The notes below the pieces were generated by a model. The model was given only the letters and a program-made list of their open reading frames with translations. It searched no databases and was not told where the DNA came from. Source: Torpedo marmorata (lineage: Eukaryota). From it: DNA of 64,000 bases. The stretch covers positions 38,626,001 through 38,690,000 of the forward strand of contig OZ360230.1 in the NCBI GenBank assembly GCA_977017645.1, written 5' to 3'. Shown here in pieces: positions 3,185 through 64,000 of this stretch (position 1 is its first letter; every line of letters begins with the position of its first letter). The translations under genes and the position numbers were made by a program.

Positions 3185-3553
3185 ATCATGCATTTATAAT
3201 GGTTTATTGGATATAAGATCAGCCTCTATGGCTGGGATTAAGAATGATTGGGAACGTGATTTGAAAACAACATTTTCAGATGAAGATTGATATCTTACTC
3301 TTAGCTTGATTAACGCTTCTTTATTTTGTGCAAGACATTGTTTATTACAATTTAAGGTGGTACATAGAATCCATATGCCCAAACTTAAATTATCTCATTT
3401 TTATGCAGATATTGATCCACTATGTGAGAAGTGTAACATTTTTGAAGCCTCACTGATTTCTATGTTTTGGGAATGCCCAAATTTAGAGAGATTTTGGAAA
3501 GATATTTTCCAAACTTTATCAATGATTTTCAAGATTAAAATAGAACCATGTCC
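3185..3553 (+). mobile_element. Inverted 5' segment of the same L1 (ORF2 zinc-knuckle region)
   Basis: LLQFKVVHR...PLCEKC...MFWECPNLERFW...KIEPCP, which directly precedes the IA(L/P)FG motif that opens the minus-strand segment. Confidence 0.8.
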
Positions 3554-3715
3554 AAAACCAATCTTCCAAGTGAAGCAACATTTCACTTGTGAATCTGCAG
3601 GAGTCATATACTGCATTCGGTGCTCTCGTTGTGGCCTTCTCTACATCGGAGAGACTGGACGCAGACTGGGAGGTTGCTTTGCTGAGCATCTTTGCTCTGT
3701 CCGCATCAATGACAT
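3554..3715 (+). mobile_element. Penelope-like GIY-YIG endonuclease fragment
   Basis: FQVKQHFTCESAGVIYCIRCSRCGLLYIGETGRRLGGCFAEHL, homologous to 62200-62350. Confidence 0.85.
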
Positions 3716-4815: not shown

Positions 4816-5015
4816 GAGTGAAACACGAAAGTCTGCAGACGCTGTGATTGTAGTAAAAACACAAAAATGCTGGAGGAACTCAGCAGGTCTTGAAGCAGCC
4901 AAAGGAGGTAAATATATATAACCAACATTTCGAGCCTGAGCTCTTCTTCAAGGTATGTAGGTCTATGGACACTGCGGGGCCTGCTGAATTCCTCCTGCAT
5001 TTTAGTGTTTTTACT
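4816..5015. mobile_element. Short fold-back PLE 3'-end insertion
   Basis: Long minus-strand arm (gagtgaaacacgaaagtctgcagac...cttcttcaagg) plus shorter inverted arm lacking the terminal ~35 nt; TSD degenerate (gtt..agataa). Confidence 0.8.
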
Positions 5016-13070: not shown

Positions 13071-13485
13071 GAGTGAAACACGAAAGTCTGCAGATGCTGA
13101 GATTGTAGTAAAAACACACAGAAATGCTGGAGGAATTCAGCCGGTCTCGCAGACTCCATAGGAGGTAAAGATATATTACCAAGGTTTCGGGCCTAGCCCT
13201 TTGTTCAAGGTATAAGCAAAAGGCAGGCAACCATCTTAAATCAAGACAAGAGATTAAGGCGGTAGAATGCAAGGGGGAGGAGTCCAGACTTAACTGCCAA
13301 AAGGTGTTAATTGGATATGATAAGAGGAGGGGTGAGAATTGATTTTGGCTCTGTGAAAGGAGACAGAGGAAAAAGGGAGAAGAGAGAGAGAGAGAGACAG
13401 AGCCAGGGGAAAGGCGGCAGGGGAAGAAGATGGGGGGGGGGGGGCGGGGGGTGGGTGTTTTAATGGAAACCGGAAAAGTCGATGA
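13071..13485 (-). mobile_element. PLE 3' UTR fragment (pyrimidine-rich UTR, hammerhead region, 3' terminus)
   Basis: Same terminus gagtgaaacacgaaagtctgcag; ends at ccggaaaagtcgatg (IDFSGF, the end of the PLE ORF). Confidence 0.8.
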
Positions 13486-15325: not shown

Positions 15326-16325
15326 ATAGAACATAGAACATAATAGCACAGTACAGGCCCTTTGGCCCACGATGTTGTCCTGACCTATATAAACTTACTC
15401 AGCAATCTGTACCTTCCCTACCTCACACCCATAGCCCTCTAATTTTCTTGCATCCATGTGCCTCTCCGAGAGTCTTTTAAATGTCCCTATTGTACCAGCC
15501 TCCACCACCATTCCTGGCAATGGATTTCTGGCACCCAATACTCTCTGTGTAAAACACTTACCCTAAACTTTCCTCCCCTCTGCTTATACAGATGTTCTAT
15601 GGTATTTGCTACTCTCGCCCCGGGTAAAAATGTGCTGGCTGCCCATCCTATCTATGCCTCATAATCTTGAGGACCTCTATTAAGTTACCTCTCATCCTTC
15701 TTTGTTCCAAAGCGAATAGCCTTAGATCTGTTAACCTTGCCTCATAAGACATGTTCTCCAATCCAGATACCATCCTGGTAAATCTCCACTGCACCCTCTC
15801 CAAAGCTTCAACATCCTTCCCACAATGTCCACCGCCATAATGAGGCAACCAGAATTGAATGCAATATTCCAAGTATTGTCTAACCAGAGTTTTATAGAGC
15901 TGCAACATTATCTCATGACTTGAAAATCCCCCAACTAATGAAGGCCAGCATATCATAAGCCTTCTTAACTACCCTATCATCCTGCGTGGCAAACCTGAGG
16001 GATCTTTGTATTTAGTCCCCAAGGTACCTCTGTTCTTAGACACTTAAGAATCCTGCCATTAACCATGCACTCCACTTTCAAGTTTGACCTTCTAAACTGC
16101 ATCACTTCACACTTATCCAGATCGAACTCCATCTGCCACGTTTCTGACCAACTGCATCCTGTCTATATGCTGTTGCAAGCCACGACAAATTTCTGCATTA
16201 TCCAAACTTTGTGTCATCTGCAAACTTACTGACCCATCCTTCTGCTTCTTCATCGAGGTCATTTTTAAAAAATAAAAAGTGAATGGGTCCCAGAACAGAT
16301 CCCTGCGGAATTCCACTCATCACTG
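15326..16325 (-). mobile_element. CR1-clade LINE, 5'-truncated
   Basis: LQLYKTLVRQYLEYCIQFW...LERVQWRFTRM...RGNLIEV; FADD motif region; (tagaaca)n tail. Confidence 0.88.
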
Positions 16326-16468
16326 AAACTTTCCTATCGTGATATTAACAACATATTTAAAGGCAAAGCAGAATTTTAACTATAATTCTTTTCACAAATG
16401 CAGAAATTAATTGTATGTAAAAACATCCCACTTTGTAACATGTAAAATATTAAGAATATCAGGAATAG

Positions 16469-16959: not shown

Positions 16960-18253
16960 ACTATCACCTGTGATGAAATGCTTTGAGAGGCTGGTCATGA
17001 CCAGAATTAACACGTACCTAAAGAAAAGATCTGGACCCACTGCAATTCGCCTATTGTCACAATCGCTCTACAGCAGATGCAATATTGCTGGCTCTCCACT
17101 CAGCTCTGGATCACCTCGAAAACAGCAATTCATACATATGGCTGCTCTTCATCGACTACAGCTTGGCCTTCAATACCATTATTCCCTCAGTGCTGGTCAA
17201 GAAGCTACAAACTCTAGGCCTCTGTACCCCACTCTGCAACTGGATCCTTGACTTTCTCATCGGAAGACCACAGTCAGTACGAATTGGAAACAACGTCTCC
17301 TCCTCACTGATTATCAACACAAGCGTACCCCAAGGATGCGTGCTTAGCCCACTGCTCTACTCATTATACACCCATGGCTGTGTGGCCAGGCACAATTCAA
17401 ATGTCATCTACAAGTTTGCCGATTACACCACAGTTGTCGGCAGAATCACAAACGGCAATGAGGAAGTGTACAGGAGGGAGATAGATCAGCTCGTTGAATG
17501 GTGTAACGACAACAACCTTGCGCTCAACGTCAGCAAAACCAAGGAGATGATTGTGGACTTCAGGAGGATGTCAGGGGAACATGACCCAGTCCTCATCGAG
17601 GGCTCAGTAGTGGAGAGGGTCAAGAACTTCAAATTCCTGGGTGTCAACATCTCCGAGGATCTGACCTGGAGCCTCCACATTGATGCAATCACAAAGAAGG
17701 CTCGCCAGTGGCTACACTTTGTGAGGTGTCTGAGGAGATTCGGTATGTCACCGAAGACTCTTGTAAACTTCTACAGGTGTACCGTGGAGAGCATTCTGCA
17801 TGTTGCATCACTGCCTGGTTTGGAGGCGCCAAATCTCAGGACAAGAATAAACTCCAGAGGGTTGTTAACTCGGCCTGTGACATCACAGGCAACAAACTTC
17901 ACTCCATCGAGGGCATCTACATGAGGCGGTGTCTTAAAAAAGCAGCCTCTTTCCTCAAAGACCCCCACCAACCAGGCCATGCCCTCTTCACTCTGCTACC
18001 ATCGGGAAAAAGGTACAGGAGCCTAAAGACGAGCACTCAACAGCACAAGGACAGCTTCTTCCCCGTTGCCATCAGATTCCTGAATAATCAATGAACCATA
18101 GACATTGCCTTACTTTTCGTGCACTATTATTTATATATATATTTTTAGTAATGTCGTAAGATGGTTATAATATGAATGTTTGCACTGTGATGCTGCCGCA
18201 AAAAACTGAATTTCATGACTTGTTCATGACAATAAATTCTGATTCTGATTCTG
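16960..18253 (+). mobile_element. Rex1/Babar-clade LINE, 5'-truncated RT pseudogene
   Basis: MKCFERLV...[12 protein letters not shown]...[15 protein letters not shown]...KFAD...LLPSGKRYRS...FFPVAIRFLN; tail caataaa(ttctga)n. Confidence 0.9.
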
Positions 18254-21149: not shown

Positions 21150-22320
21150 GGCTAGAATACGTGGGATTCACAGTGAGCGAGTCAATTGAATGCAAAACTG
21201 GCTTGGAGATAGGAGGCGGAGAGTGTTAGTAGAGCGCTGCAGGGATTAGTGCTGAGAACATTGTTATTAATCATTTATTTGTATATACGAATACTTGTCC
21301 TGCATATGTATTGTTTGTCTGTATGTCTGTTATGTCAGGCTATGTGTCTGCGTATTTTGCACTGAGGACCGGAGAACGCTGTTTCATCGGGTTGTACTTG
21401 TGCGATCAAATGACAATAAACTTGACTGGACTTGACTTGACATGTTAATCATTTGGATGAGAATGACTCGTAAGCTTGCAGATGACACCAAAATAGTTGG
21501 TATAGTGGACACTGAGGAAGGTTATCTAAAATTACAAGAGGATATTGATCAACTTGGAAAGCAAGGAAAGGAATAGCAGATGGAGTTTAACTCAGACAAA
21601 TGTGAAGTGATATATTTGGGAACTTAGACCAGGGAAAGACTTGCACAGTGAATGATAGGGCTTTGGAGAATGTTATACAGAGAGACCTCAGGGTACAAAC
21701 ACATAGTTCTCTGAAAGTGGCAACTCAGATATAGTGGTGAAGAAGACATACGGCAGGCTTGCCTTCATTGGCTGAAGCATTGAGTACAATAGATGAGCTA
21801 TGTGGTGTGGGGACCATCCACATACAGGATCTTTGACCCACTACCATCAGGCAGGAGGTACAAGAGTATCAAAATCAGGACTGCAAGGCTTGGAAATAGC
21901 TTCTTCCCACAGGCTGGGAGATTGATGAAAGTTATCCTATAACCTTGGGATTCTTATAAATGAAACAAGTAAATTATTCCAATATATTTATGCATATTTG
22001 TTTTATGTTATATTTTATGTATGTATGTCATTATCATGTGCTGTGTGAGAAATGTATTGTGTGTATGTGTGTGCACCATGGTCTGAGAAATGCTGTTTCA
22101 TCTGGTTTATATGTACAGTCAAGTGATAATGAACTTGAACTTGAACTTGAAGCTGGAGATGGTGCAGAAAAAATTCACTGGAATACAGCTGCTTTGGAGG
22201 GCAGCTGGGACTATTTTCCCTGAAGCAAAAGACACTGAGAGGAGACGTGATAGAGGTATTTAATATTATGAGAGGCAGAGATATGGAAGATAGTCAGCGT
22301 CTGTTTGCAGGAGGAATAGA
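21150..22320 (+). mobile_element. Degenerate CR1 with nested Rex1-type 3' tails (21280-21440, 21800-22150)
   Basis: LADDTKIVG...LQEDIDQL...MEFNSDKCEV; inserted tails ending (cttga)n and (gaactt)n. Confidence 0.7.
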
Positions 22321-22610
22321 ATGTGTTGTTCCACAAATTTACATTTGACCTCAACCTGGCAATGGATGAGGACAGATATATCTACATGGGAATTTTGAAG
22401 GGAATTGAAATAATTGGCTACTGGGAGTTCAAGCTTAGACCTACAGAGTGCAGATGTTCGGCAAAGCAGTCATGCAATCTACGTTCAGTCTACACCGATG
22501 TAGAAGAAGCAACACTAAACAGAGTAAATTAGGTTGGACGATAACGCATTTTAGACCGTCTCACCTAGAAGGCCTGTGTATGGCCCTGGATGGAGGTGAG
22601 GGAGGGAGAG
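22320..22610 (-). mobile_element. Degenerate PLE GIY-YIG fragment
   Basis: Aligns by eye to 60500-60810 (gcaaagcagtc..caatctacg..agtct..ccgatgtaga). Confidence 0.65.
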
Positions 22611-23890: not shown

Positions 23891-25258
23891 ATGGTTATGT
23901 CCACTAGTTCTAGTAGTGTGCAGATGACACTTGCATTTGCACATGCTCAGAGGCTGAGCTCCAAGTCCCTGAAGCATACTCACTATCTGCAAGACAACAT
24001 CCTTGACTAACCTGCTCGCATGCACCATCATCTCCTCCAACAATGAAAGTCTGAAGCAAGACCCTAGAAGATATGAACCACTTCCTACATTTCAGGAGCC
24101 ATCTCTTTGGGAAGGACGACATAGATGATGAATTTCTTCACCAACTTCAAAGCACCATTACAACTTTTGTTTGACTGAGGAAAAGGATTTTTTGAAAAAC
24201 AAGCATAAAACTCGGTCCACTGGGCAGTGGTGATCTCTGCCCTTCCATATGCTCTGAAACCTGGACTACTTAGAGCAGGGAGCTTGGAGCACTGTGAAAA
24301 TATCTTCCGTGCTGTGTCTCAAAATCCTCCAGCTTCATGGGAAGGTTGAATGAACCATCTTCCGTGTCCTATCTCAGGTCGACAATCCCAAAGCCTGATT
24401 GACTCTCAGTTGACTTGCCACATCTTCCACAAAATCCTAGACTGCCAAAACAGATAGTCTATTCTGAGACTGTTTTGGGAAGGGATTACCAAATTGGCAG
24501 AGAAAAAGACTCTACGATGTGTTCAGAGCCTGTTATAAGAATTGCAACATCCCACTGACTCTTGGGAATCTCTGAGCCATGATGGCTCAAAGCAGAGAAG
24601 GGGGTTTTAGGATATTACGAATCCACAGTCCATGAATTGGGAGTGCACAGAAGCTCCGTGTAGGCGGCAGAAGGACCACACCCCTCGGAAACCACACATC
24701 TACTCACCCCTTGTAGAGGTATATAAAATCATGAGGGGCATATATAAGGCAAGTAGTATCATAGGCTTTTTTATTCCCAGGGTAGGAAGTCTAAAACTAG
24801 AGAGCAGAGATTTAAGGCGGGAGGGGTAAGATTTAAGAGACCTGAGGGGCAGTAGGTACGTATATATAACGAGCTGCCAGAGAAGTGGTAGAGATGGGTA
24901 CAATTGCAATGTTTGAGAGACATTTACACAGGTATGTGGATAAGAAAGGTATAAAGCAGAAAAAAAGTTTCCAAAATCCCAGGGACAGCATCTGAAGAAG
25001 ATGACCTCAAAAGGGTTGGATCACAAGAGTTAAAAAGTGATGCACCAGATTATTGTATCGCCTTGGTCTGATCTTGTTTGGTTCACAGATTTGTCTGTGG
25101 TTCTGAAAGAGAAACACTGGAGTTTCATCAGAATAGTACAATCTCTTTAAAGGGCTAAAGGGTGCTCTGTTCATCTTCATAAAGTAATGAAGGAATTCAA
25201 CAAGACATGGAGAAAATATTTCCTATGTTAGGGAATAAAGTGGACTGAATCCTAAATT

Positions 25259-25458
25259 TACAAATACACTAAATTGCTGGAGAAACTCATCAGGTCCCGC
25301 AGCGTCCATTGGACATTATACCTTGACAAAAGGCTCAGGTTCAAAACGTTGGTCACATATCTTTGCCTCCTATGGACGCTGCGGGACCTGCTGAGTTTCT
25401 CTGGCAATTTTGTGTACTTACTACAATCACAGCGTCTGAAGACTTTTGTGTTTCGCAT
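25259..25458. mobile_element. Short fold-back PLE 3'-end insertion inside a decayed CR1
   Basis: Short left arm and long right arm (~39 nt extra); 11-bp TSD aatcctaaatt (25248-25258, 25459-25469). Confidence 0.85.
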
Positions 25459-27213
25459 AATCCTAAATTAGGGTTATTTCTATGAAGAATAGCATAGAAC
25501 TCAGATTCATGCCCCCAAAAGGCTAAGAATGTTGGGTTCAATAACATTTTTGAGGTTGAGATTCACACGTATTTGTTGCTTGACAAGGTTATCAAAGAAT
25601 TATGCCACATCGGTTATATCACTATAGTTCACCATGCATTAGTTATACTGTAGACTGTTTTGGAGAATGGTTTGTAATTAGAGTTCCTTTCACCATGGCC
25701 GTAGTTTGTTGTAATGTTAGATTTGCAAACACAATTCATAAAAACAGCCTGAAGTGGTAGCACTTCCACCACTAAAGTTCTCCAATCAGCCACTGTTTAA
25801 AATTAGAGCTGCCCATTTAACTCATCACTGTTTGTAGACCTTGCCCTTCACCTTTTTTGCTGCTTTGTTTATCACAATCCAAAAGGGACACTCACTTCAA
25901 AAGTTCTTAATTAGCTGCGAAACATATTGGGATAACCTAATGTCGTGAAAATCATTCTGCAGGTGCAAACATTCTCTTAACAATACTTGGATATGTCTTG
26001 AGAGGTTTCAAAATGCTGTGTGAATTTGCAAGGGTTCAGAATAAACAGAGATTACAAGATTTAGTGAATTAAGTGTGGAAAATGTTGGTTTTTAGGTCTT
26101 TCTTAGTCAATAAACAGCACAGATTTCAAAGGAAGTAATACGATTCCTAAAAGTTGGAGCAGGGCTACTTAACATTTATATGTATGATTTTGTAACTTCA
26201 GGATTCTTAAGATTAACACCAGTTGCCATCTCTTGTGCTTTAATCGTTTCTGTGGTTGTAAATCTATGCTGAGGCTACTTGGTTCGAAAGGCTGCATACT
26301 GCCACATGTTTATAGAATGGAGTATACTTATCTGGCTTGACAGCTCTAGATTATCAGTCAATACCAATATTAAATTCTAGGCAATTTAGCAAAGAGATTG
26401 GATGATTGCATTTTGATATGCCAAACACAAAGAGGGGTACAGAAGGTTTTGCAATGAGATAAGTAAAATGCAGTCAGTAGTTTGCTAATGCCATTATTTT
26501 CTAGTGAAAGAGGAGCCACATCATCAAAGCTTGAGATATCAACATAAACTCTGATTGCCCTTATGTACTGCCAAGGATTAATACTGTTGTTCTTCTCTAG
26601 CCATTAAATCTCCATGAACATTATATTATTGTACTACTATTTGATTGCAATATATTGGCGTGTTATTTCTTTATTTTCCTCAGCTGACTAAAATTAGAAT
26701 GCTTTTCCTGCATTGTTTACAATCATTGACGATTATTTCTTTTATCTGTCTGAGGTGTGTGTGTTATTATAAAGGTTATTTGGATTCATGTTATAACTAA
26801 GCTCACTCTAAAGATGTATGCTTCCTTACAATTGCTGATTCTTGAGTTCGCCCTAATTAATGGTCTTGTCACTGCATGCAAAAGGTCAGCTAAAGTGTGA
26901 AAACTTCTGTTCCTTAGCAACACAATCCTTGCCAGAATGCCAGGATGCCAAAGCAAAGTTGCAACAATGCCAAGACAGTGATTAGCTAAGGTTGCCCCAA
27001 TGCTCAGTTCTGCAGCATTTTGCCACAGAACTGCGCTGCAGTAAAGTATATAATTTTCACTGAGGGTTTTCCTATTTCCAAAAAATATGTGGCAAAGGCG
27101 AGATCCGCTGAGATTGCAATGAGATAGGAAAGTTATGCAACATGATTTTGCAATTAACATTACCAATAAATTTTATGTAACATAAAGCTTACTTTTAACA
27201 TACAAAGAACATT

Positions 27214-28085: not shown

Positions 28086-29090
28086 GAACATTACAGCACA
28101 GTGCAGGCCCTTCGGTCCACTGTGTTGTGCCATCCTATATAAACCTACTCAATAAACTAATCCTTCCCTATCTCACACCAATAACCCTCTATTTTTCTTG
28201 CATCCATGTGACTGTCTAAGAGTCTTTTAAATGTCCCCATTGTACCAGCCACCACCACCACCCCTGACAATGCATTCCAGGCACTCACTACTCCCTGTTT
28301 AAAAAAACTTACCCGTGACGTCTCTCCTAAACTTACCTCCCTTCACCTTATACAGATATACTCTGGTGTTTGTTACTCTTGACCTGGGAGAAAGGTTCTG
28401 ACTGTCCACTCTCTCTCTGCCTCTCATAATCTTGTAGACCTCTATTAAGTCACTTCTCATCCTTCTTCGCTCCAGAGAAAAGCCTTAGCTCTGTTAACCT
28501 TGACACCTTCTGCAATCAAGGCAACATACTGGTAAATGTCCTCTGCACCCACTCCTTAGCTTCCACATCCTTCCTTTAATCAGGTGACTAGAATTGAACA
28601 CAATATTCCAAGTGTTGTCTAACCAGAATTTTATAGAGCTGCAACATTATCTCATGACTCTTGAACTCAATCCCCCAACTAATGAAGGCTAGCATACCAC
28701 AAGCCTTCTTAACTACCCTATCAACTTGTGTGGCAACCTTGAGAGATTTTTAGATTTAGAACCCAAGGTACCTCTGTTCTTCCACACTGTTAAGAATCCT
28801 GCCATTAACCGTGTACTCTGCCTTCAAGTTTGACCTTCCCAAATGCATCACTTCACATTTATCCGGATCAAACTCCATCTGCCATTTTTCTGCCCAACTC
28901 TGCATCCTGTCTATATCCTATTGTAACCTACGATAACCTTCTACACTATCCACAACATCTCCAGCCTTCGTGTCATCTGTAAACTTACTGACCCATCCCT
29001 CTACTTCTTCGTCCAGGTCATTTATGAAAATCACAAAGAGCAGGGTTCCCAAAACAGATCCTTGCGGATGGAACTCCACTCATCACTGAA
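28086..29090 (-). mobile_element. CR1-clade LINE, 5'-truncated
   Basis: Colinear with 15326-16325 along its length. Confidence 0.88.
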
Positions 29091-29268
29091 ATTTTCCTTT
29101 GGTGATATTAACAACATATTGTTACAGTATTTAAAGGCAAAGCAGAATTTCATCTCTAATTCTTTTTGCAAATGCAGAAATTAATTGTATGCAAAAACAT
29201 CCCACTTCATAACATGTAAAATATCTCAGGATGTTTCAATGGGAAGTTATTAAAAGAAGTTTGACAGA

Positions 29269-38879: not shown

Positions 38880-39236
38880 CTCCAACCAGATGGCATCAAT
38901 ATCAACTTCTCCAATTTCTGTTAACCCCCTCCTCTGGTCTCTTTCTTTCCCTCATCCCTCTGTCTCCCTTCAGCTCTTCACACCCTTCCCAAGCAGAGAG
39001 CTATCTTTCAGCCTTCTGCCGTCTCCCCTTTTCACTTCACAGATTCTTTCTCTTCTACCCTCTCACCTACATTTAGCTATTACCTCTTACCAGTTAGCCT
39101 GAGTTCCTCCCCCTCCTTTTTATTCAGGCATCAGTCTGATTTTTGGCATACCTGATGAAGGGCTCAGGCCCAAAATATTAACTACCTTTTCCTTTCTATG
39201 CATGCTGCGTGACCTGCTGAGTTTCTCCAGCACTTT
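38880..39236 (+). mobile_element. PLE ORF end plus 3' UTR with hammerhead core
   Basis: QPDGININFSNF; CTGATGA-A-GGGC TCAG GCCC-AAAA (39152-39175; canonical CUGAUGA, GAAA box mutated). Confidence 0.8.
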
Positions 39237-40547: not shown

Positions 40548-42200
40548 TCAGAATCAGAATTTATTGTCCTGAACATGTCACAAAATTCATTGTTTTACAG
40601 CAGCATTACAGTGCAAATATTGCTATAAAATTACATTTAAAAATAAATAAATAAATTAGTTAAAAAATAAGAGAAAGTGAGGTAGTGTCTGTGGTTCTTT
40701 GTCCATTCAGAAATCTGATGGCAGAGGGGAAGAATCTGTCCTTGTGTCGCTGGGTATTCGTCCTCAGGCTCCTGTACCTCCTTCCCAATGGTAGCAGTGT
40801 GAAGAGGGCATGGCCTGGGTGGTGAGGGTCCTTGAGGATAGAGGCTACTTTCTCAAGAATCCACCTCTTGTAGAAGTCCTCGACAGAGTGAAGACTAATG
40901 GTTGTGATGGCGCAAGCCGAGTTCACAACTCTCTGTAGTTTCTTCTTGTCCTGTGCATTGGTACGTCCATACCAGACAGTGATGCAACCAGTCAAAATAC
41001 TCTCCATGGTACGCCTGTAGAAATTTGCAAGAGTTTTGGTGACATACCGAATCTCCTCAAACTCCTCATGAAGTATAGTTGCTGGCGAGCCTTCTTCATG
41101 ATTGCATCGACATGGAGGCTCCAGGACTGATCCTCAGAGATGTTGACACCCAGGAACTTGAAGCCCTTAACCCTTTCCACTGCTGACCCCTCCATGAGGA
41201 CTGTTTCGTGATTTCCTGATTTACCCCTCCTGAAGTCCATAATCAGCTCCTTGGTTTTGATAATTTTGAGTGCAAGGTTGTTGTTGTGACACCACTCAAC
41301 TAACTGATCTATCTCCCTCTTGTACGCTACCTCATTGCTATCTGTGATTCTGCCAATGACCTTGGTGTCATCAGCAAATTTGTAGATGCCATTTGAATTG
41401 TTCCTAGCAACACAGTCATGGGTGTATAGTGAGTAGAGCAGTGGGATAAGCACACATCCTTGAGGTGCAACTGTGTTGACCATCAGTGAGGAGGAGTCGT
41501 TTTTTCCCGATTCGTACTGACTGGCTTCCGATGAGGAAGTCAAGGATCAAGTTGCAGAGGGGGGTGCAGAGGCCCATCAGCACTAAGGGTATGATGGTGT
41601 TGAAAGCTAAGCATAGTTGATGAAGAGTAGCCTGGTGTATGTGTTGCTGTTGTCTAGGTGGTCCAGAGCTGAGTGGAGAGCCAGTGAGATTGCATCTACT
41701 GTGGAGCGATTGTGACAGTAGAATTGCAGTGGGTCCAGATCTATACTTAGGTACAAGTTAATTCTGGCCATGACCAACCTCTCAAAGCAATTCATCACAG
41801 TAGATGTGAGTGCTGCTGGACGATAGTCATTGAGGTAGCTCAATCTGCTCTTCTTGGCCACCGGTATAATTTATGCCCTTTTGAAGCAGGTGGGAACCTC
41901 TGACTGCAGCAATGAGAGATTGAAATGTCCGTGAACACTCCGGCTAGTTGGTTGCACAGATTTTCAGTACCCTGCAAGATACACCGTCAGGGCCTGACGC
42001 CTTGCGAGGGTTCATCCTCTTGAAGGATGTTCTGATGTTGGCCTCAGATACCGATATCACAGGGTCGTCAGCTTCTGTGGGGATTCTCATAGGTATCATT
42101 GAGTTATCCTTCTCAAAGCAAGCATAAAAGGTGTTCAGCTCATCGGACAGTGAAGCATCACAGCCATTTATGGTGTTTCCATGAGCTTCAACATCTGCTC
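40548..42200 (-). mobile_element. Rex1/Babar-clade LINE, frameshifted RT
   Basis: RKASGPDG...[21 protein letters not shown]...PQGCVL...KFADDT...FFPSAIRFLN; nested in an older CR1-like relic (~39600-42380). Confidence 0.9.
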
Positions 42201-50652: not shown

Positions 50653-52412
50653 TAAATACATTTTCATTAGTTAGCTAGCAGACAAAGCTCTATCTGGAGT
50701 ATAATTTGCAATTTAAACTAAAGGTCAGCAATGGATTTAAGGGAACACACAGCACATATACTCTGCTGTTTTAGAGCTCAATAAAATATGGATATGATTT
50801 ACATGTTTAACTATATATTCATTTACTTGGAAACTACTCTGACTTACCCTACCTCCCCCATTTCCATTCTTCTTTCAAATACATCAGTGAAATTATATTG
50901 CTCTATAAGTAGCAATGGATATAAAATTAATTGGATTTACAATTGAGCTAAACTATTAAAATGACATTGGAGCTATTACAACTTTCTTTGACAATCTCTG
51001 GATTCAGAGTGAAGGTTATGATGCATTTTTAATGTTCAAGGTTTTGACCCTCAAAGTAAATGAAAAGAACACACGAGGAAAAGAGATGTCAAGAGTCACA
51101 GGTGCAGTTTTAGGATTCCTAAAGCCCGTGGCCCTATTGCTGGAACCATATAGCCTGCAGGTGAGATAAATGGTCCCCTGCTGCTGTTAGGCATGCCATG
51201 AATGATACCTCCAGCAAGGCCCTGTGACTAGAAACTAGTCAGCCTTGAAATTAACATCCTGAGGAAAACCTCTTTCTCCCCTCCAGACAACAGCAGCTTA
51301 AGAGAAAAACAACAGATGACAAAGAAGGTTCAGGCAAACAGTGGGGAAGTTACATTCTGTGTTGGAGGAAATGTTTGTTTTTCTATCTCAGTTATGGCAC
51401 TGTGCTTCTAGAGGTAGATAATGCCTTTGGCCAATGGGGGTGATCCCATTGCTTCCTGTAACACACGCACAGCTGAAAGTACAATAAAGGATGGAGACCT
51501 TTGACACTTTAAAGAGCCTTCAATTCAGAGCACTGGGTGTAATTAAATATGCTGATTATTCACCTTTATGCAACAAAGTCTATTGGTAAATCTGATAAAG
51601 GAAGACTGAAGACTCACTCTGCACAGAAAAGGGAAAATCACAATGACATTCATGGAATATTTTTTGATGCTAGAAATATGTCCTAAAACACCTTCTATAT
51701 TCTCCAACCAAAATATTCATAATGGGCTTCAGTCCAAAACAGTAGCTGATGCAAACATTATTCAGGCTAGAATGATTTTAGTAGGGAGGCATGGTTTATT
51801 ACACTCAAGTTTTCCATGCCAGATAAGACTTAGATATTAAATTGATTGGCCACATTTGCAGAAACTTAAGTTATGCAGGTTTACTCTTCAATGGTCTGTA
51901 GACAATGCATACAGGCCTGGCCTTAATGTCATTGCATTCAGGCTCAGCAGATTTTATTGCCTAATTTAAAGAATCATTTTACTTCAATCTTAATACATAT
52001 ACTCAAATAATTTACAAATGCTTCTTATTCTTGGATTGACCTTGTATTTTTCTGCAACCAAAACAGAACACTGCTCTAACCTCCAAAGATCAGCCACTTT
52101 GTAAGAAACAATTGTATTATTGATAAAGGCACTTATATGTCAGAACAACCTTTCTTACTATAATATTAACAATTAAAACAAATGTCAAATATCTGTACAA
52201 TTAAGAAAATGAAGCTGCAGGAAATTAAATTGAAAATACACGTTAATTGTTCTGTATAGAGAAAAGACTGGCTGTGACATTTCAGGTGTATGTTCTATTG
52301 TTATGGGTACTAACTAATATGCTTTTTGTATTAATCTAGGAGGAGTCATTGCCAGGTTGTAACAAAAACTGCTCATCAAATTTGCCTTTTACCGAGGAGT
52401 CACCAAACTTTC

Positions 52413-52557
52413 GGAGTGAAACACGAAAGTCTGCAGACACTGTGATTGTAGTAAAAACAGAGAAATGCTGGAGGAACTCAGCAGGTCTCACAGCATCCAT
52501 AGGAGGTAAAGATACAGTATATAACTGACGTTTCAGGCCTGAGCCCTTCTTCAAGGT
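52413..52557 (-). mobile_element. Solo ~145-bp PLE 3' module (hammerhead plus terminus)
   Basis: Minus strand ccttgaagaagggctcaggcctgaaacgtcag...gactttcgtgtttcactc; 8-bp TSD aaactttc (52405-52412, 52558-52565). Confidence 0.85.
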
Positions 52558-54067
52558 AAACTTTCAGCAAGTTTAATCATTATTAAAGAGGAAGAAAATT
52601 GTATTTATCACCACTCGTTTCAGGTTGCTCCGGAACATTTCAAGGTCAACAAAATACTATTGCCACCAAAATGTGTTCTGCAAGCTCCCACAAATGGTGA
52701 TAAAAGAACCAGCCATGTAGTCTGCATTTTTAAATTGGCGTTTTTTGGCATTGCCTTTGTTCAAAGTAATGTTGTGAGACCTTTTAGGTCCACTTGAAAG
52801 GCAATGACATTTGGTTCAACTTCTTAACCAAAATCTGACATCTCTGACAGTGGAGGATTTCTGCAATAGGGTTTATGTGGTCAATTCTCCATTGGGGCTT
52901 TAACTCATAATCTTCCAACACAGAATCAAATCTGAATGCAATGAACGATGCTTAATGCAATGGAAGTCTTTCTTTACATTTTCACGTTATCCTTACCATC
53001 AATATTCTGTCTTACTAGTACATCCTGACAAACATTCATACAGGTGCATCCACACATTCAGATAATGGAGCATTTCCAATTTAAAATCTTGGACCAATCC
53101 CAAAATTGTGAATAACTGAAACTTTTGTTGGATTACATTTTAGCCTTTATATTACTTGGCTTCCCATATAACAGTAAATTTGAATATTTCCCTGACCTTT
53201 CTCTGCTGTAGTCTGCTCCATAGTGCAGTCCCTCTTGGTGGTGAGGTGTTTATCAAATAAAGAAGTGGTCTCTTGATGATGAAAAGTGATAGCCTGGAGT
53301 GCAAGGCTCACGTGGTTATCCCATAAGCAGAACCACGATCAATTTTGCTGTGCTCTGGTGAAATACCAGGAAATCTGGTATGTTGGCAATCTGATTGTGC
53401 CTTGTAAAGTTTGTTTCTTGTCTGTGATGCCCCGATGATTAAGGCATTGAAGTTTAGTTCCTGCCTGTCAGCATCACAGCCACGGCTTGGTACAGACCCA
53501 GTTGGAGACCAGCATCCAACTGACTTCTGGAAGTACCCTGGATTTTCAGATGAGATTTCCACCATGAAATTTATGTTATTCTATGATGTGTGCCTCATTA
53601 ATGCATTTAGTAATAGGACAGGGTTGGAGGGACACCATTGTTGCCAATTGAATTCATAGTAAAATCTGGAACTTACTCTGGCAAACTAGCACCAACCAAA
53701 AAAAAGTTGTAGCCTTGGAATGATATTGCTAGTTGTTTATTTTGCTGTTATTGATTTTTTACTGCTTCTATTATTGGCCAATTTTTGTATTGAATCTTTA
53801 TTTATCTCATTTGTTTTAGTTTCAGCTTCAGTGACTGTCAAGGCTTCTCTAAGTCATTACTTTTGAAATGTAATCATTTGTAGCTAAATGGAGCAACTAG
53901 CTTTCACACAGCAAGGTCCCATCAAGAACAACATTGTCATTACATGTTCATCTATTTTCAGTGGAGTTCAATGTGAGGAAAACATTGAAAAGACCACGAG
54001 GATAGGTCTCCTTGAGGAGTGCTGTGGCAACTTATACATAAATGAGTTGCCACTGTAGCCTAGATTA

Positions 54068-58675: not shown

Positions 58676-59325
58676 CTCCTGGGGATAGCACATCGAGGCA
58701 ACTGTTAAAAAGGCACACCATGCCTTTTACTTTCTAAGGAGTTTGAGGAGGTTCTGTATGTTGTCAAATACTCTGTTCAACTTCTACAGGTGTACATTGG
58801 AATGTATACTGATTGACTGCATCACAGCCTGGTTTAGAAACTTGAATGCCCAGGATCACAGAAAGGCTGCAGACAGTGGCAGACTTAGCCAAGTCCATCA
58901 GAGGCACAGACCTGCTGGCCACAGAAGATACCCATGTGTGGCGTTGCCTCAAGAAAGCTGGCATAACCATGAAAGACCCCTGTTACCTTGCTCTCTTCTT
59001 GCTGTTACCTTCAGGCAAAAGGCACAGAAGTCTGAAGTCCAGTACCACGAGGTTCAAGAATAATTTTTTTTAAACAGGTATCAGGTGCTTGAACCCCCGT
59101 GCATGACCCTTATCACAACACTACTCCAAGACCACCACTAATCTGTCTGCACTACTGACTCAGACCTATTTTTACACTTTGACCAACTGTGAATATTTTT
59201 ATCCTCTTCGTTTTATATTATGATCTTTTTTCTCTTCTTCTGTGCTGGTGATTTATGCTCCTGGGAAGCTACAAGAAAGCGTTACATCTGCACATTGCTC
59301 TTGTGTATACGGCAATAAATTTAAA
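58676..59325 (+). mobile_element. Rex1/Babar-type LINE 3' portion
   Basis: FNFYRCTLECILIDCITAWF...LLPSGKRHRSLKSSTTRFKNNFF. Confidence 0.8.
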
Positions 59326-60141
59326 CCTGCATTTTTTGAATTTTATGGAAAAACAAATACAGTTTTTCTTCACTACTAATGCTTCTCCAACTATTTCTAA
59401 TCTGATTGTATGGGACACTATGAAAGCATATCTGAGAGGGCAAATTATTTCTTATACAGCTAACATAAAGAAGAGGACTAATAAGGAAAGATTGGAATTA
59501 ATTAATCAGATTAAACAAATTGATTTACAATACGCTCAAGATAAAAATCCTGATTTATATAAAAGGAGACTTGAACTTAAAACTAAATTTGATCTTCTTT
59601 CTACTTATCCTATTGAACAGCAACTTTTGAGGAGTAAGAGTCAGTTCTACATTCATGGTGAAAAGTCTGGTAATATTTTGGCTAGCCAACTGAAAGGAAT
59701 GGCTGCTAAAAGACAAATTAATAAGATTCGGATGGGAGATGGTACGGAGACTACTGACCATTCTAAAATAAATGATACCTTTAGAGGATTCTATTCCAGA
59801 TTGTATACTTCTGAATCTAATAAAGATTGTACTTCAATGTGGGATTTTCTGGACTACCTTAATCTGCCTACGCTTTCTCAGAATAATTGTACAAGTCTGG
59901 AGGCACCTATTTCTCAAGAAGAAATATTATTGCCAATTTCCTCTTTACAATCTGATAAATCTCCAGGACCTGATGGATACCCCGTTGAATTTTATAAATC
60001 CTTTTCCAAATGGCTTGTGCCTCATTTAAGTTCAGTGTTTAATGATTCATTTAAACATAGGAATCTTCCATTATCTTTTAATGAAGCTTGTATTTTTCTT
60101 ATTTTGAAAAAAGGGAAGGACCCTTCTGAATGTGCTTCTTA

Positions 60142-61640
60142 AAAAAACACAAATTCTGGAGAAACTCAGCAGGTCAAACAGTGTCTTTTATGTAGCAAAG
60201 GTAGAAATACATAACCAACATTTCGGGCTTGAGCCCTTCATCAAAGTATGAGAAAATGCCGGCAGGCGTCCGAACAAAGGAGTGAGGGGGGAAGGGGGAT
60301 GGCAAAGGCAGGAGATGATAGGTGGAGAAAGGAGGGAGGGGACTACAGCAAAGAGAGGGAGGAGGGATGGTTTGGTAGCTGGAGAAAAACAGGAAGGACA
60401 GGTGAGGGGGGAGGGGAAGGGAACGACAAGCAGGTTTAGTGGAAAGCAGAAAAGTCAATGTTAATGCCATCTAGCTGGAGAGTGCTGAGACGGAATATGA
60501 GATGTTGTTCCTCCAATTTGCGGGTAGTCTGGGTGGGATAGTACATGAGGCCATGGACAGACATGTGAGTGTGGGAGTGTGACCCGGAATTGAAAAAGTT
60601 GGTTACTGGGAGGTCGCTGTTGTTGCGGACGGAGAGGAGGTGCTCAGCAAAGCAGTCTCCCAATCTACGACCGGTCTCTCCAATGTAGAGAAAGCCACAA
60701 AGGGAGCACCGGATGCAGTAAATAAGTTCTCTGGATGTACAAGTGAAGTGTAGTTTCACTTGGAAGGCCTGTTTGGGGCCCTGGACTGTGGTGAGGGGGG
60801 AGGTGTGGGAGCAGGTGTTGCACTTCCTGCGGGCACAGGGGAAGGTTCCGGGGGTGCGATGGGTGGGGAGGGATGAGTGCACGAGTGAATCGCGGAGGGA
60901 GCGGTCCCTACGGAAGGCCGAGAGGGGAGGAGAAGGAAAAATGTGTCTGGTGGTGGGATCCTGTAGTAAGTGCCGGAAATTCCGGCGGATAATGTGTTAG
61001 ATGCGGAGGCTGGTGGGGTGGTAGGTGAGGATAAGGGGGATTCTATGTTTGTTGCGTCTGGGGGCAGAGGGGGCCAGGGCAGATGAGCGGGAAATGGAGG
61101 AGATGCGGGTGAGGGCTGAGTTGATGGTGGTGGAGGGGAAGCCACATTTGTGGAAAAAGGAAGACATTTCAGAAGATCTGGGGTGGAACACCTCATCTAG
61201 GGAACAGATGCGGCGGAGGCGGAGAAATTGAGAGAAGGGGATGGAGTCCTTGCAGGGGACAGGGTGTGAGGATGTGTAGCCCAGATAGTTGTGGGAGTTG
61301 GAGGGTTTGTAGTAAATGTCGGTGGAAAGCTTGTCTCCCGAGATGGAGACAGAGAGATCCAGGAAAGGGAGAGTGTTATCGGAGATGGACCAGGTGAGTT
61401 TGAGATCGTGGTGAAAGTTGGATGCGAAGTGGATGAAGTTGACAAGCTCATCGCGGGTGTATGAGGCAGCCCCGATGTAGTCGTCAATATACCAGAGGAA
61501 GAGATGAGGGGTCTTGCCTGTGTAGGCTTGCAGCATGGATTGCTCCACAAAGCCCACAAATAGGCAGGCGTAGCTGGGACCCATGCGGGTACCCATGGCT
61601 ACTCCTTTGATTTGGAGGAAGTGGGATGAGTTGAAGGAGA
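60142..61640 (-). mobile_element. Penelope-like retroelement, left arm (RT C-half, GIY-YIG, 3'UTR)
   Basis: QIKGVAMGTRMGPSYACLF...WYIDD...FLDL; IYCIRCSLCGFLYIGETGRRL; one internal stop near 60997. Confidence 0.93.
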
Positions 61641-62873
61641 ACTCCCACAACTATCTGGACTACACATCCTCACCAACTCCCACAACTATCTGGACTACAC
61701 ATCCTCACACCCTGTCCCCTGCAAGGACTCCATCCCCTTCTCTCAATTTCTCCGCCTCCGCCGCGTCTGTTCCCAAGATGAGGTGTTCCACTCCAGATCT
61801 TCTGAAATGTCTGCCTTTTTCCACAAACGTGGCTTCCCCTCCACCACCATCAACTCAGCCCTCACCCGCATCTCCTCCATTTCCCGCTCATCTGCCCTGG
61901 CCCCCTCTGCCCCCAGACGCAACAAACATAGAATCCCCCTCATCCTCACCTACCACCCCACCAGCCTCCGCATCCAACACATTATCCGCCGGAATTTCCG
62001 GCACTTACTACAGGATCCCACCACCAGACATATTTTTCCTTCTCCTCCCCTCTCGGCCTTCCGTAGGGACTGCTCCCTCCGCGATTCACTCGTGCACTCA
62101 TCCCTCCCCACCCATCGCACCCCCGGAACCTTCCCCTGTGCCCGCAGGAGGTGCAACACCTGCGCCCACACCTCCCCCCTCACCACGGTCCAGGGCCCCA
62201 AACAGGCCTTCCAAGTGAAACTACACTTCACTTGTACATCAAGAGAACTTATTTACTGCATCCGGTGCTCCCTTTGTGGCTTTCTATACATTGGAGAGAC
62301 CGGTCGTAGATTGGGAGACCGCTTTGCTGAGCACCTCCTCTCCGTCCGCAACAACAGCGACCTCCCAGTAGCCAACCATTTCAATTCCGGGTCACACTCC
62401 CACACTCACATGTCTGTCCATGGCCTCATGTACTATCCCACGCAGACTACCCGCAAATTGGAGGAACAACATCTCATATTCCGTCTTGGCACTCTCCAGC
62501 CAGATGGCATTAACATTGACTTTTCTGCTTTCCACTAAACCTGCTTGTCATTCCCTTCCCCTCCCCCCTCACCTGTCCTTCCTGTTTTTCTCCAGCTACC
62601 TAGCCATCCCTCCTCCCCCTCTTTGCTGCTGTCCCCTCCCTCCTTTCTCCACCTATCATCTCCTGCCTTTGCCATCCCCCTTCCCCCCTCACTCCTTTGT
62701 TCGGACGCCTGCTGGCATTTTCTCATTCATTGATGAAGGGCTCAAGCCCGAAACGTCGGTTATGTATTTCTACCTTTGCTACATAAAAGACACTGTTTGA
62801 CCTGCTGAGTTTCTCCAGCATTTGTGTTTTTTACTTCAACCACGGTGTCTACAGATTTTCGTGTTTTACTTCT
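61640..62873 (+). mobile_element. Penelope-like retroelement, right arm (thumb/linker, GIY-YIG, 3'UTR, full terminus)
   Basis: Open frame to ...LYIGETGRRLGDRFAEH...RKLEEQHLIFRLGTLQPDGINIDFSAFH* (stop at 62538); near-identical inverted copy of left arm; 15-bp TSD tgaatgtgcttctta (60127-60141, 62874-62888). Confidence 0.93.
62730..62757 (+). ncRNA. Minimal hammerhead ribozyme-like motif in PLE 3'UTR
   Basis: TTGATGA-A-GGGC TCAA GCCC-GAAAC-GTC; mirror copy on minus strand at ~60217-60244. Confidence 0.65.
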
Positions 62874-64000
62874 TGAATGTGCTTCTTATAGGCCTATCTC
62901 GTTACTTAATGCAGATATGAAGATTTTGTCCAAAATATTGGCCCATAGACTAGAGAATATTTTACCATTAATTATTTCTGAGGATCAAACTGGTTTTATT
63001 AAGAATCGTTATTCTTATTTTAATATACACCGCTTATTGAATATTTTATATTTACCTTCTACTCCTGCCCACGAAGTGTTCTTTCTTTAGATGCAGAGAA
63101 GGTTTTTGACCGGGTGGAATGGGGTTATTTATTCGTCACTTCGGAAAAATTTAATTTTGGACCATGTTTTATTAAATGGATTAAATTATTATATTTATGT
63201 CCTACTGCCTCAATTCTTACTAATTCACAGCAATCAAAACCTTTTAATCTTCAGCGGGGTACTCGTCAAGGTTGTCCTTTAAGTCCTTTGCTTTTTGACT
63301 TGGTATTAGAACCTTTAGCAATTGCTCCGTGAAAGTAGAGATTTCATAGGGATACATAGGAATGGTATCGAACATAAGGTTTCCTTATATGCAGATGATC
63401 TTCTTCTTTTTATATCCAATCCAGACGTTTCTTTACCAAACATATTAGCATTATTTTCTCATATTAGTCAGTTCTCTGGGTATAAATTGAATCTGCATAC
63501 AAGTGAACTATTACCTTTAAATGGTTCTATATCAAGATATTCTAATTTCCCTTTTAAGATTGTGAAAGATCAATTTACGTATCTTGGTATTACAATTACT
63601 AGGAGTTATAAACACCTTTGTAAGGAAACATTTTCTGTATTATTTAGTCAGGTTAAATTATTGTTATTGAGTTGGTCACCTTTATCTATTTCCATGATCG
63701 GACGTATTAATTCTATTAAAATGAACATTTTACCTAAATTTTTGTATCTCTTCCAATCAATACCAATTTTTATCCCCAAATCCTTTTTTGATTTACTTGA
63801 TTCGCTTATATCTTCTTATATATGGCAAGGAAAACACCCTCGCTTAAATAAAGCTCATCTTCTAAAAACTAAAAGGAACGGTGGATTGGTATTTCCTAAT
63901 TTTAGATTTTATTATTGGGCGGTCAATATACGTAATTTGCTTCTTTTATTGCATTTCAATAAATTAGTTGACTGCCCTTCATGGGTAGAAATGGAACTGA

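Follow-up and report, generated by a model that had tools for sequence, protein, structure and literature searches.

Here we describe an insertion in the genome of Torpedo marmorata (assembly GCA_977017645.1), which lies in a 64,000-nucleotide (nt) stretch of contig OZ360230.1 (forward strand, positions 38,626,001–38,690,000; hereafter the window, with coordinates counted from its first nucleotide). The insert occupies 60142–62873 and is bounded by identical 15-nt direct repeats at 60127–60141 and 62874–62888, both read on the forward strand. It consists of two 5'-truncated copies of one element encoding a reverse transcriptase (RT) and a GIY-YIG endonuclease, set in opposite orientations such that both 3' ends lie at the flanks. 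Judged by its domain order, CCHH motif (see below), tail, inverted copy and target-site duplication (TSD), the insert is an endonuclease-bearing Penelope-like element. A preliminary description of this DNA had reported a 2.7-kb insertion that splits open reading frame 2 (ORF2) of a LINE-1 (L1) element and is bracketed by a perfect 15-bp TSD, and both statements are borne out: we measured 2,732 nt between the repeats, and an exact search found the 15-mer twice only in the window. With ±20 nt of slack at both insert ends, any exact 15-mer would arise by chance with a probability of about 1e-5. The TSD may measure 15–19 nt, given that each copy is preceded by CTTC, to which the right side adds one T. 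The G+C content of the insert is 53%, as against 31–32% in the flanks.

The flanks hold the two parts of the target. Its left part (59252–60126, forward strand) belongs to an open frame at 59252–60142 that resembles L1 from about position 59470, and corresponds to residues 307–525 of human LINE-1 ORF2p (phmmer, E = 1.4e-28). Its right part (62889–64000, forward strand) carries the RT domain of L1 ORF2 in three frames and corresponds to human residues 529–583 (E = 3.6e-10), with RVT_1 matches on this side as well. The TSD encodes ECAS, the Ser of which aligns to human residue 529; since the left piece stops at 525, nothing has been gained or lost beyond one copy of the TSD. The L1 frame ends on the left as ...KGKDPSECAS* and picks up on the right as ...ECASYRPISLLNAD, and by this alignment the target is an L1 ORF2, collinear with human ORF2p across the insertion point. 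The continuity is local only, as the right part is split over the frames 62809–63090, 63024–63332 and 63319–63999. The earlier statement that removal of the insert restores the L1 frame therefore holds at the insertion point (ORF2p 525/529) but fails further on, where the L1 is broken into separate frames.

The two arms of the insert differ in length, in content and in how they end. The left arm (60142–61641, reverse strand; 1,500 nt) is tailless and contains the C-terminal half of the RT (GVAMG, YIDD), a thumb, a CX4CXXC linker, the GIY-YIG endonuclease and a 3' repeat, the run from RT motifs through thumb and linker to endonuclease forming one frame that is interrupted by one stop (60997–60999). 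Relative to a 904-residue homologue (P0006; 50% identity over residues 505–713) this arm starts inside the RT. Its 5' extension of 340 nt (61302–61641, reverse strand) occurs in the left arm only and forms the spacer between the inverted parts. The right arm as a whole (61640–62873; 1,234 nt) begins, in element terms, 340 nt downstream of the start of the left arm. Its body (61673–62832, forward strand) is collinear with the left arm and open up to a stop at 62536–62538, covering thumb, linker and GIY-YIG domain, and is followed by a 41-nt tail (62833–62873, forward strand) that is confined to the right arm and has homologous counterparts on five short copies elsewhere in the window. Over the 1,160 nt that they share, the arms differ at 35 positions (3.0%; identity 97.0%). 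There is no exact register between their stop points, which lie 340 nt apart.

The arms meet at 61640–61641, a 2-nt overlap (AA) common to both. The family to which the insert belongs is very abundant in four sequencing runs (300,798 contigs from run X1 alone at 88% likeness), and its contigs, which part from the reference behind 61641 and before 61673, place the junction. A tandem duplication with a period of 35 nt (61640–61708, forward strand) stands at the 5' end of the right arm, seen as identical 34-mers at 61640–61673 and 61675–61708; the two copies agree with each other, and both have the right-arm letter at one position where the left arm differs. We considered this duplication as the TSD of a second insertion and rejected it, as nothing lies between its copies. 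The head-to-head orientation of two truncated arms was correctly recognized in the preliminary description, but the arms do not cover the same ~1.2 kb as it had supposed (1,500 and 1,234 nt, of which 1,160 are shared), and the left extension, the right-only tail and the central duplication were absent from it. With half of the RT missing, the product was dead on arrival; it shows no sign of function and lies in a dead L1.

Homologues and motifs allow the family to be placed. Searches with the right-arm peptide recovered 78 homologues among 1,643 candidates, the best at 63%; the best that carry names are those of Stegostoma tigrinum (63%) and, with half of the query covered, of Chiloscyllium punctatum (62%), which by themselves make a cartilaginous fish the likely host. 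The GIY-YIG match in Pfam (E = 0.0027, 18.4 bits) falls below the curated cut-off of 22.6, and two full-length homologues (P0006 and P0012) match both RVT_1 and GIY-YIG. The CCHH motif is present in the right arm, where GIY and YIG enclose two Cys (LIYCIRCSLCGFLYIG) and EH and NH follow; in the left arm the second His is gone. The right arm also has the linker finger CARRRCNTC (CX4CXXC), a motif found in 67 of the 78 homologues. The CCHH motif is defined in PMC8557442, along with a CX2-5CXXC finger in the linker that joins RT to endonuclease, a finger missing in Penelope and Poseidon. By these definitions the combination seen here excludes Penelope and Poseidon and leaves Neptune or Nematis. 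Neptune elements have a C-terminal GIY-YIG domain with CxxC inside GIY/YIG, two later His and a CX4CXXC linker, all of which are present here; the linker motif is a feature of Nematis too and so does not part the two. Among sampled vertebrates only Neptune and Poseidon have been described, Neptune occurring in vertebrate classes (bioRxiv 10.64898/2026.07.22.740005). Membership of the Neptune clade is thus likely, as an assignment from protein motifs and the vertebrate occurrence given in that preprint. The RT piece of the left arm matched nothing in PDB at E up to 1, and the 3' motif of the family, scanned for as a pattern, had 0 matches in three public collections (viral, metagenome, prokaryote genome).

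Both arms terminate where the family as a whole tends to terminate. Among the loose contig ends listed (24 of 7,136), contigs of the family end behind 62832 (219 in run X10, 249 in X2) and behind 62869–62871 (344 in X1, 251 and 255 in X10, 258 in X2), and beyond both positions the sequence is mixed (agreement 0.36–0.38). Part of the X10 pile at 62832 resembles T-run variants that continue into the tail. The two arm ends fall on these family-typical ends, and the starts of reverse transcription are likely to be internal priming sites at the boundaries of the tail. Such a pair of starts has been described for the purified PAc protein of a Poseidon element of Anolis carolinensis, which initiates at two adjacent internal sites bounding the tail (PMC11167929). 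The earlier proposal of one event primed on both strands is supported (one TSD around both arms, sequence private to each arm, and the activity of PAc on both strands), but its placement of the start simply near the RNA 3' end should probably give way to the internal sites.

A minimal hammerhead-like motif, found by pattern search at 62731–62765 (forward strand) and mirrored at about 60209–60243 in the left arm, lies about 75 and 115 nt upstream of the two arm-end positions. It comprises the core, an extra base, a helix II with a G-C closing pair, GAAA, a palindromic CG and UC; the extra base, the G-C closing pair and the palindromic CG are part of the hammerhead descriptor in PMC4209133. Position 3 is U rather than C, helix I is weak, and helix II appears as a hairpin in the predicted fold. 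An Rfam search gave no hammerhead match at E up to 5 (two chance matches only), and folding z-scores were not significant for the hammerhead region (−1.5, −0.5) or the tail region (−1.9). PAc resembles the present family in its two adjacent internal starts around the tail and in its A+T-rich target, and it has a hammerhead motif about 75–115 nt upstream of its starts, to which the motif described here may correspond. It belongs to a different clade without the linker finger, and inverted insertions do not feature in the main text of PMC11167929.

Three observations touch on the same terminal region. A tailless solo 3' end elsewhere in the window has a hammerhead core in which position 3 is the canonical C. 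Many contigs of run X10 jump from 62803–62827 back to 62737–62741, about 65–90 nt within the terminal repeat, which suggests that in that organism the part from hammerhead to tail forms short tandem repeats. Finally, AAT often stands first or soon after the tail (62872–62879, and after the tailed ends at 541, 25459 and 13072; small numbers), and also occurs within the plurality letters beyond 62871 in X1 and X10. ATT, its bottom strand, is the cut motif preferred by PAc (PMC11167929), and AAT may reflect either a target preference or primer–template pairing.

Whether the arms arose together can be judged from how they differ. Family data cover 7 of the 35 arm differences, and the variable positions discussed here are those listed for X1 (40 of 523, 19 of them in the shared part of the arms; X1 counts are saturated). 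The preliminary description had allowed that the arms might fall into different subfamilies, each with its own TSD; aligned, they differ at 35 of 1,160 positions and have the subfamily letter in common at 13 of the 15 listed family-variable sites (other letter 10–56%). At four listed sites the right arm alone departs from at least 97% of depth, the left arm having the family letter, and one further site is of the reverse kind; five of the seven differences with family data are letters nearly missing from the family, as private decay predicts. At 62487 the older letter has been lost in both arms, which CpG decay would explain. Of the 23 coding differences, which include one stop and losses of conserved residues, seven are synonymous, where three neutral models expect 5.8–6.2 (P = 0.36–0.42). 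Such neutral-like change argues for decay after insertion rather than for two long-separated active sources, and the arms look to have been near-identical at birth and to have decayed neutrally since, which fits one event. Amino acid changes, when polarized, fall mostly on the left arm (11, plus one from a second family comparison, against three on the right and one left unassigned). Clustering of the differences was borderline (five close pairs against 2.0 expected, P = 0.04) and was not used, and their excess in the untranslated region was not significant (P = 0.24).

These data make it very unlikely that the 5' end of an earlier single copy later received a second one, whether by insertion there or by recombination. 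Two independent events would account for arms that are 3.0% apart, for amino acid changes that lean to the left, and for the one family-split site at which the arms differ, and the family is very abundant. Against this, a single TSD encloses both arms and neither arm has its own, as the earlier claim of a single event had it; the centre holds no second TSD or target remnant; the subfamily sites largely agree and most informative differences look like private decay; and, as described below, the same layout occurs three more times in 64 kb. An assembly or sequencing artefact, in the form of a fold-back chimera, is extremely unlikely. Inverted structures do trouble assemblies (PMC8557442), and no listed contig spans the insert, but a chimera predicts identical arms and no TSD, whereas we observe 35 scattered differences, unique sequence in each arm, an exact TSD and exact continuity of the L1. 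Opposite-strand joints linking 61320–61325 to 61671–61675 were considered as shared inversions and rejected; they reflect ordinary continuity of the family, produced by the point at which the stretch was cut.

Three further, small head-to-head pairs, of a related Penelope-like family, lie in the window. The pair at 281–540 has an exact 11-nt TSD (270–280 and 541–551), arms alike at 97 of 100 positions, the tail on the right, and a near-perfect hairpin centre with near-zero spacer. That at 25259–25458 likewise has an exact 11-nt TSD (25248–25258 and 25459–25469); its arms agree at 46 of 52 positions, the left being short and tailless and the right longer and tailed. In both of these pairs the arms are closer to each other than to any other copy. 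The third, at 4817–5014, has its tail on the left and a short, tailless right arm. Taking the four pairs in the window together, the tail is on exactly one arm in all four and the TSD is exact in three, and no two have the same centre or arm lengths.

This variety bears on the proposal that the head-to-head form is made before integration, through self-priming on an antisense template or from an inverted source locus. Self-priming of this kind was put forward for this form on the basis of palindromes at inverted junctions (PMC3846280), and a preformed template would let the arms differ at birth. In the present insertion, however, the centre is a 340-nt spacer plus a duplication rather than a palindrome, both outer ends lie at family-typical ends, and the X1 contigs leave the reference at the centre (70 behind 61641, 52 before 61673), so that the junction is not family-wide; nor would four different centres and sets of arm lengths in one window be expected of a preformed template. 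We regard this origin as distinctly unlikely.

We favour instead, with a probability of roughly 0.7 on the evidence of the finished sequence, a single insertion in which both nicked strands primed reverse transcription, one at each of the known start sites, and the two complementary DNAs (cDNAs) were joined. The endonuclease would nick both L1 strands about 15 nt apart, the spacing that we observe as the TSD. The top strand would then prime at the inner start site, giving the tailless left arm with the end seen at 60142, and the bottom strand would prime at the outer site, 41 nt further 3', giving the tailed right arm. The cDNAs would come to an end at lengths of about 1,500 and 1,200 nt, with one backward slip of 35 nt in the shorter; the duplication itself is present, and either RT slippage or repair fill-in may have caused it. 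The cDNA ends would be joined over the 2-nt overlap and the gaps filled in, after which the near-identical arms would decay neutrally. Head-to-head orientation is the geometry expected of two antisense cDNAs grown from two 3' overhangs, and purified PAc both cleaves and extends the two strands and is a predicted dimer (PMC11167929).

Plain fold-back copying is excluded by the sequence, and the term fold-back in the preliminary description can stand as a description only. A cDNA folded back on itself has only its own sequence to copy, so that everything in the second arm must also be present in the first. In this insertion the tail is missing from the longer arm and the 340 nt from the tailed arm, each holding sequence that the other does not have. 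A hybrid route is unlikely in our view: both ends would be primed, the bottom cDNA would remain short, and the long left cDNA would snap back, copy the body of the right arm and anneal to the short cDNA. This gives the same layout, with the spacer supplied by the longer arm as in any snap-back; the near-perfect hairpin centre and 97/100 identical arm letters of the pair at 281–540 are in its favour, and the neutral differences between the arms fit the identity at birth that it implies. It needs one extra step, it must treat the split site at 62286 as a later mutation, and it still requires priming at both ends, so that the writing of the right arm is all that sets it apart.

Several points weigh against double priming with joining of the two cDNAs as set out above. 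It is read from the end product, with no intermediates, and the hybrid of snap-back and short second cDNA yields the same product. The PAc work concerns the Poseidon clade, and in PMC11167929 the start site was not seen to depend on the strand, top or bottom, so that a one-sided tail is not itself predicted; under free choice, a one-sided tail in four of four pairs would have a chance of 0.06. The 2-nt overlap at the junction is within chance. At 62286, where the family in X1 is split 53:47, the left arm has the letter at 53% of depth and the right arm differs, which is faint evidence for two RNA templates and an argument against arms identical at birth. The small pair at 4817–5014, with arms alike at only 41 of 52 positions (79%) and no exact TSD, is possibly the product of two templates or two events, or an old copy. 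None of the listed contigs crosses a border between insert and flank or covers the insert from end to end, which says nothing either way.

A broader rule can be framed, in which Penelope-like elements insert by concerted double priming: a dimer would nick both strands about 11–15 nt apart, with one subunit using the outer start and so making a tail, the other using the inner start and making none, and each subunit could have a different RNA molecule as its template. We put this forward tentatively and consider it doubtful as a general account. If true, it would account at once for the TSD, for the inverted copy and for a tail on one side, and the present insertion would be a two-template product, its arms excluding fold-back and differing at one family-split site. 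If double priming were to hold genome-wide, tail, inverted copy and TSD would be joined in one testable model.

Inverted, truncated insertions with a TSD are also made by L1 through twin priming, which is read as priming from both nicked strands. In that process the second primer pairs with a more internal part of the RNA, the pieces barely overlap, and one ends in poly(A). The arms described here start within 41 nt of each other, overlap over 1,160 nt and have no poly(A) on either side; the insertion works like L1 twin priming but is not that product. The preliminary description had likewise set the two apart, by the overlap of the arms.

The layout has clear precedents among Penelope-like elements. 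Endonuclease-bearing members have been described with an inverted 5'-truncated copy, a one-sided tail of 30–40 nt and a TSD (PMC8557442); Pen2a_Av and Pen2_Av of Adineta vaga have inverted pseudo-long terminal repeats (pseudo-LTRs), an optional tail and a TSD of 8–10 nt, the head-to-head form being the most frequent (PMC3846280); Penelope of D. virilis has large inverted repeats of variable size (PMC2377424); and a curation guide names inverted pseudo-LTRs and 3' extensions among the peculiarities seen in individual copies (PMC8969392). The insertion matches the published layout in having an inverted truncated copy at the 5' end, head-to-head orientation, a one-sided tail and an enclosing TSD. 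In contrast to that layout, it lacks a full-length ORF and shows neither a direct pseudo-LTR nor a partial tandem; both arms are long bodies, 5'-truncated within the ORF, the TSD is 15 nt, and a spacer plus a 35-nt duplication stands at the centre in place of a palindrome. That inverted pseudo-LTRs are known was rightly stated in the preliminary description (compare PMC3846280), but it overstates how unusual the layout is, as this is a published common form (PMC8557442; PMC3846280) with three more cases in the window. The layout is already published, and the insertion adds one more copy to an established class. Its use is as a specimen: a recognizable coding target fixes the TSD, and a longer arm without a tail, the tail being on the shorter arm, rules out plain fold-back. 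In a literature search that left key subscription papers outside its reach, we came across no paper in which head-to-head copies of Penelope are explained by double priming.

Other copies and repeats are scattered through the window. The short family of the small pairs also has solo 3' ends, at 52405–52565, 13072–13226 and 39141–39235, two of them tailed and one tailless; the tailed end at 52405–52565 has an 8-nt direct repeat at 52405 and 52558. Older internal GIY-YIG fragments of Penelope-like elements occur at 3552–3713 (74% identity at the amino acid level), in sequence that looks L1-like, and at 22302–22514 (36%). Just 5' of the L1 target piece, a decayed repeat at 58689–59100 with an open frame of 124 amino acids matches 17716–17824 and 40971–41075 and is probably the 3' part of another LINE. 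Two pairs of dispersed repeats, 16968–18248 with 40548–41800 and 15336–16450 with 28086–29224 (1.1–1.3 kb, about 80% identity), probably represent other retroelement families.

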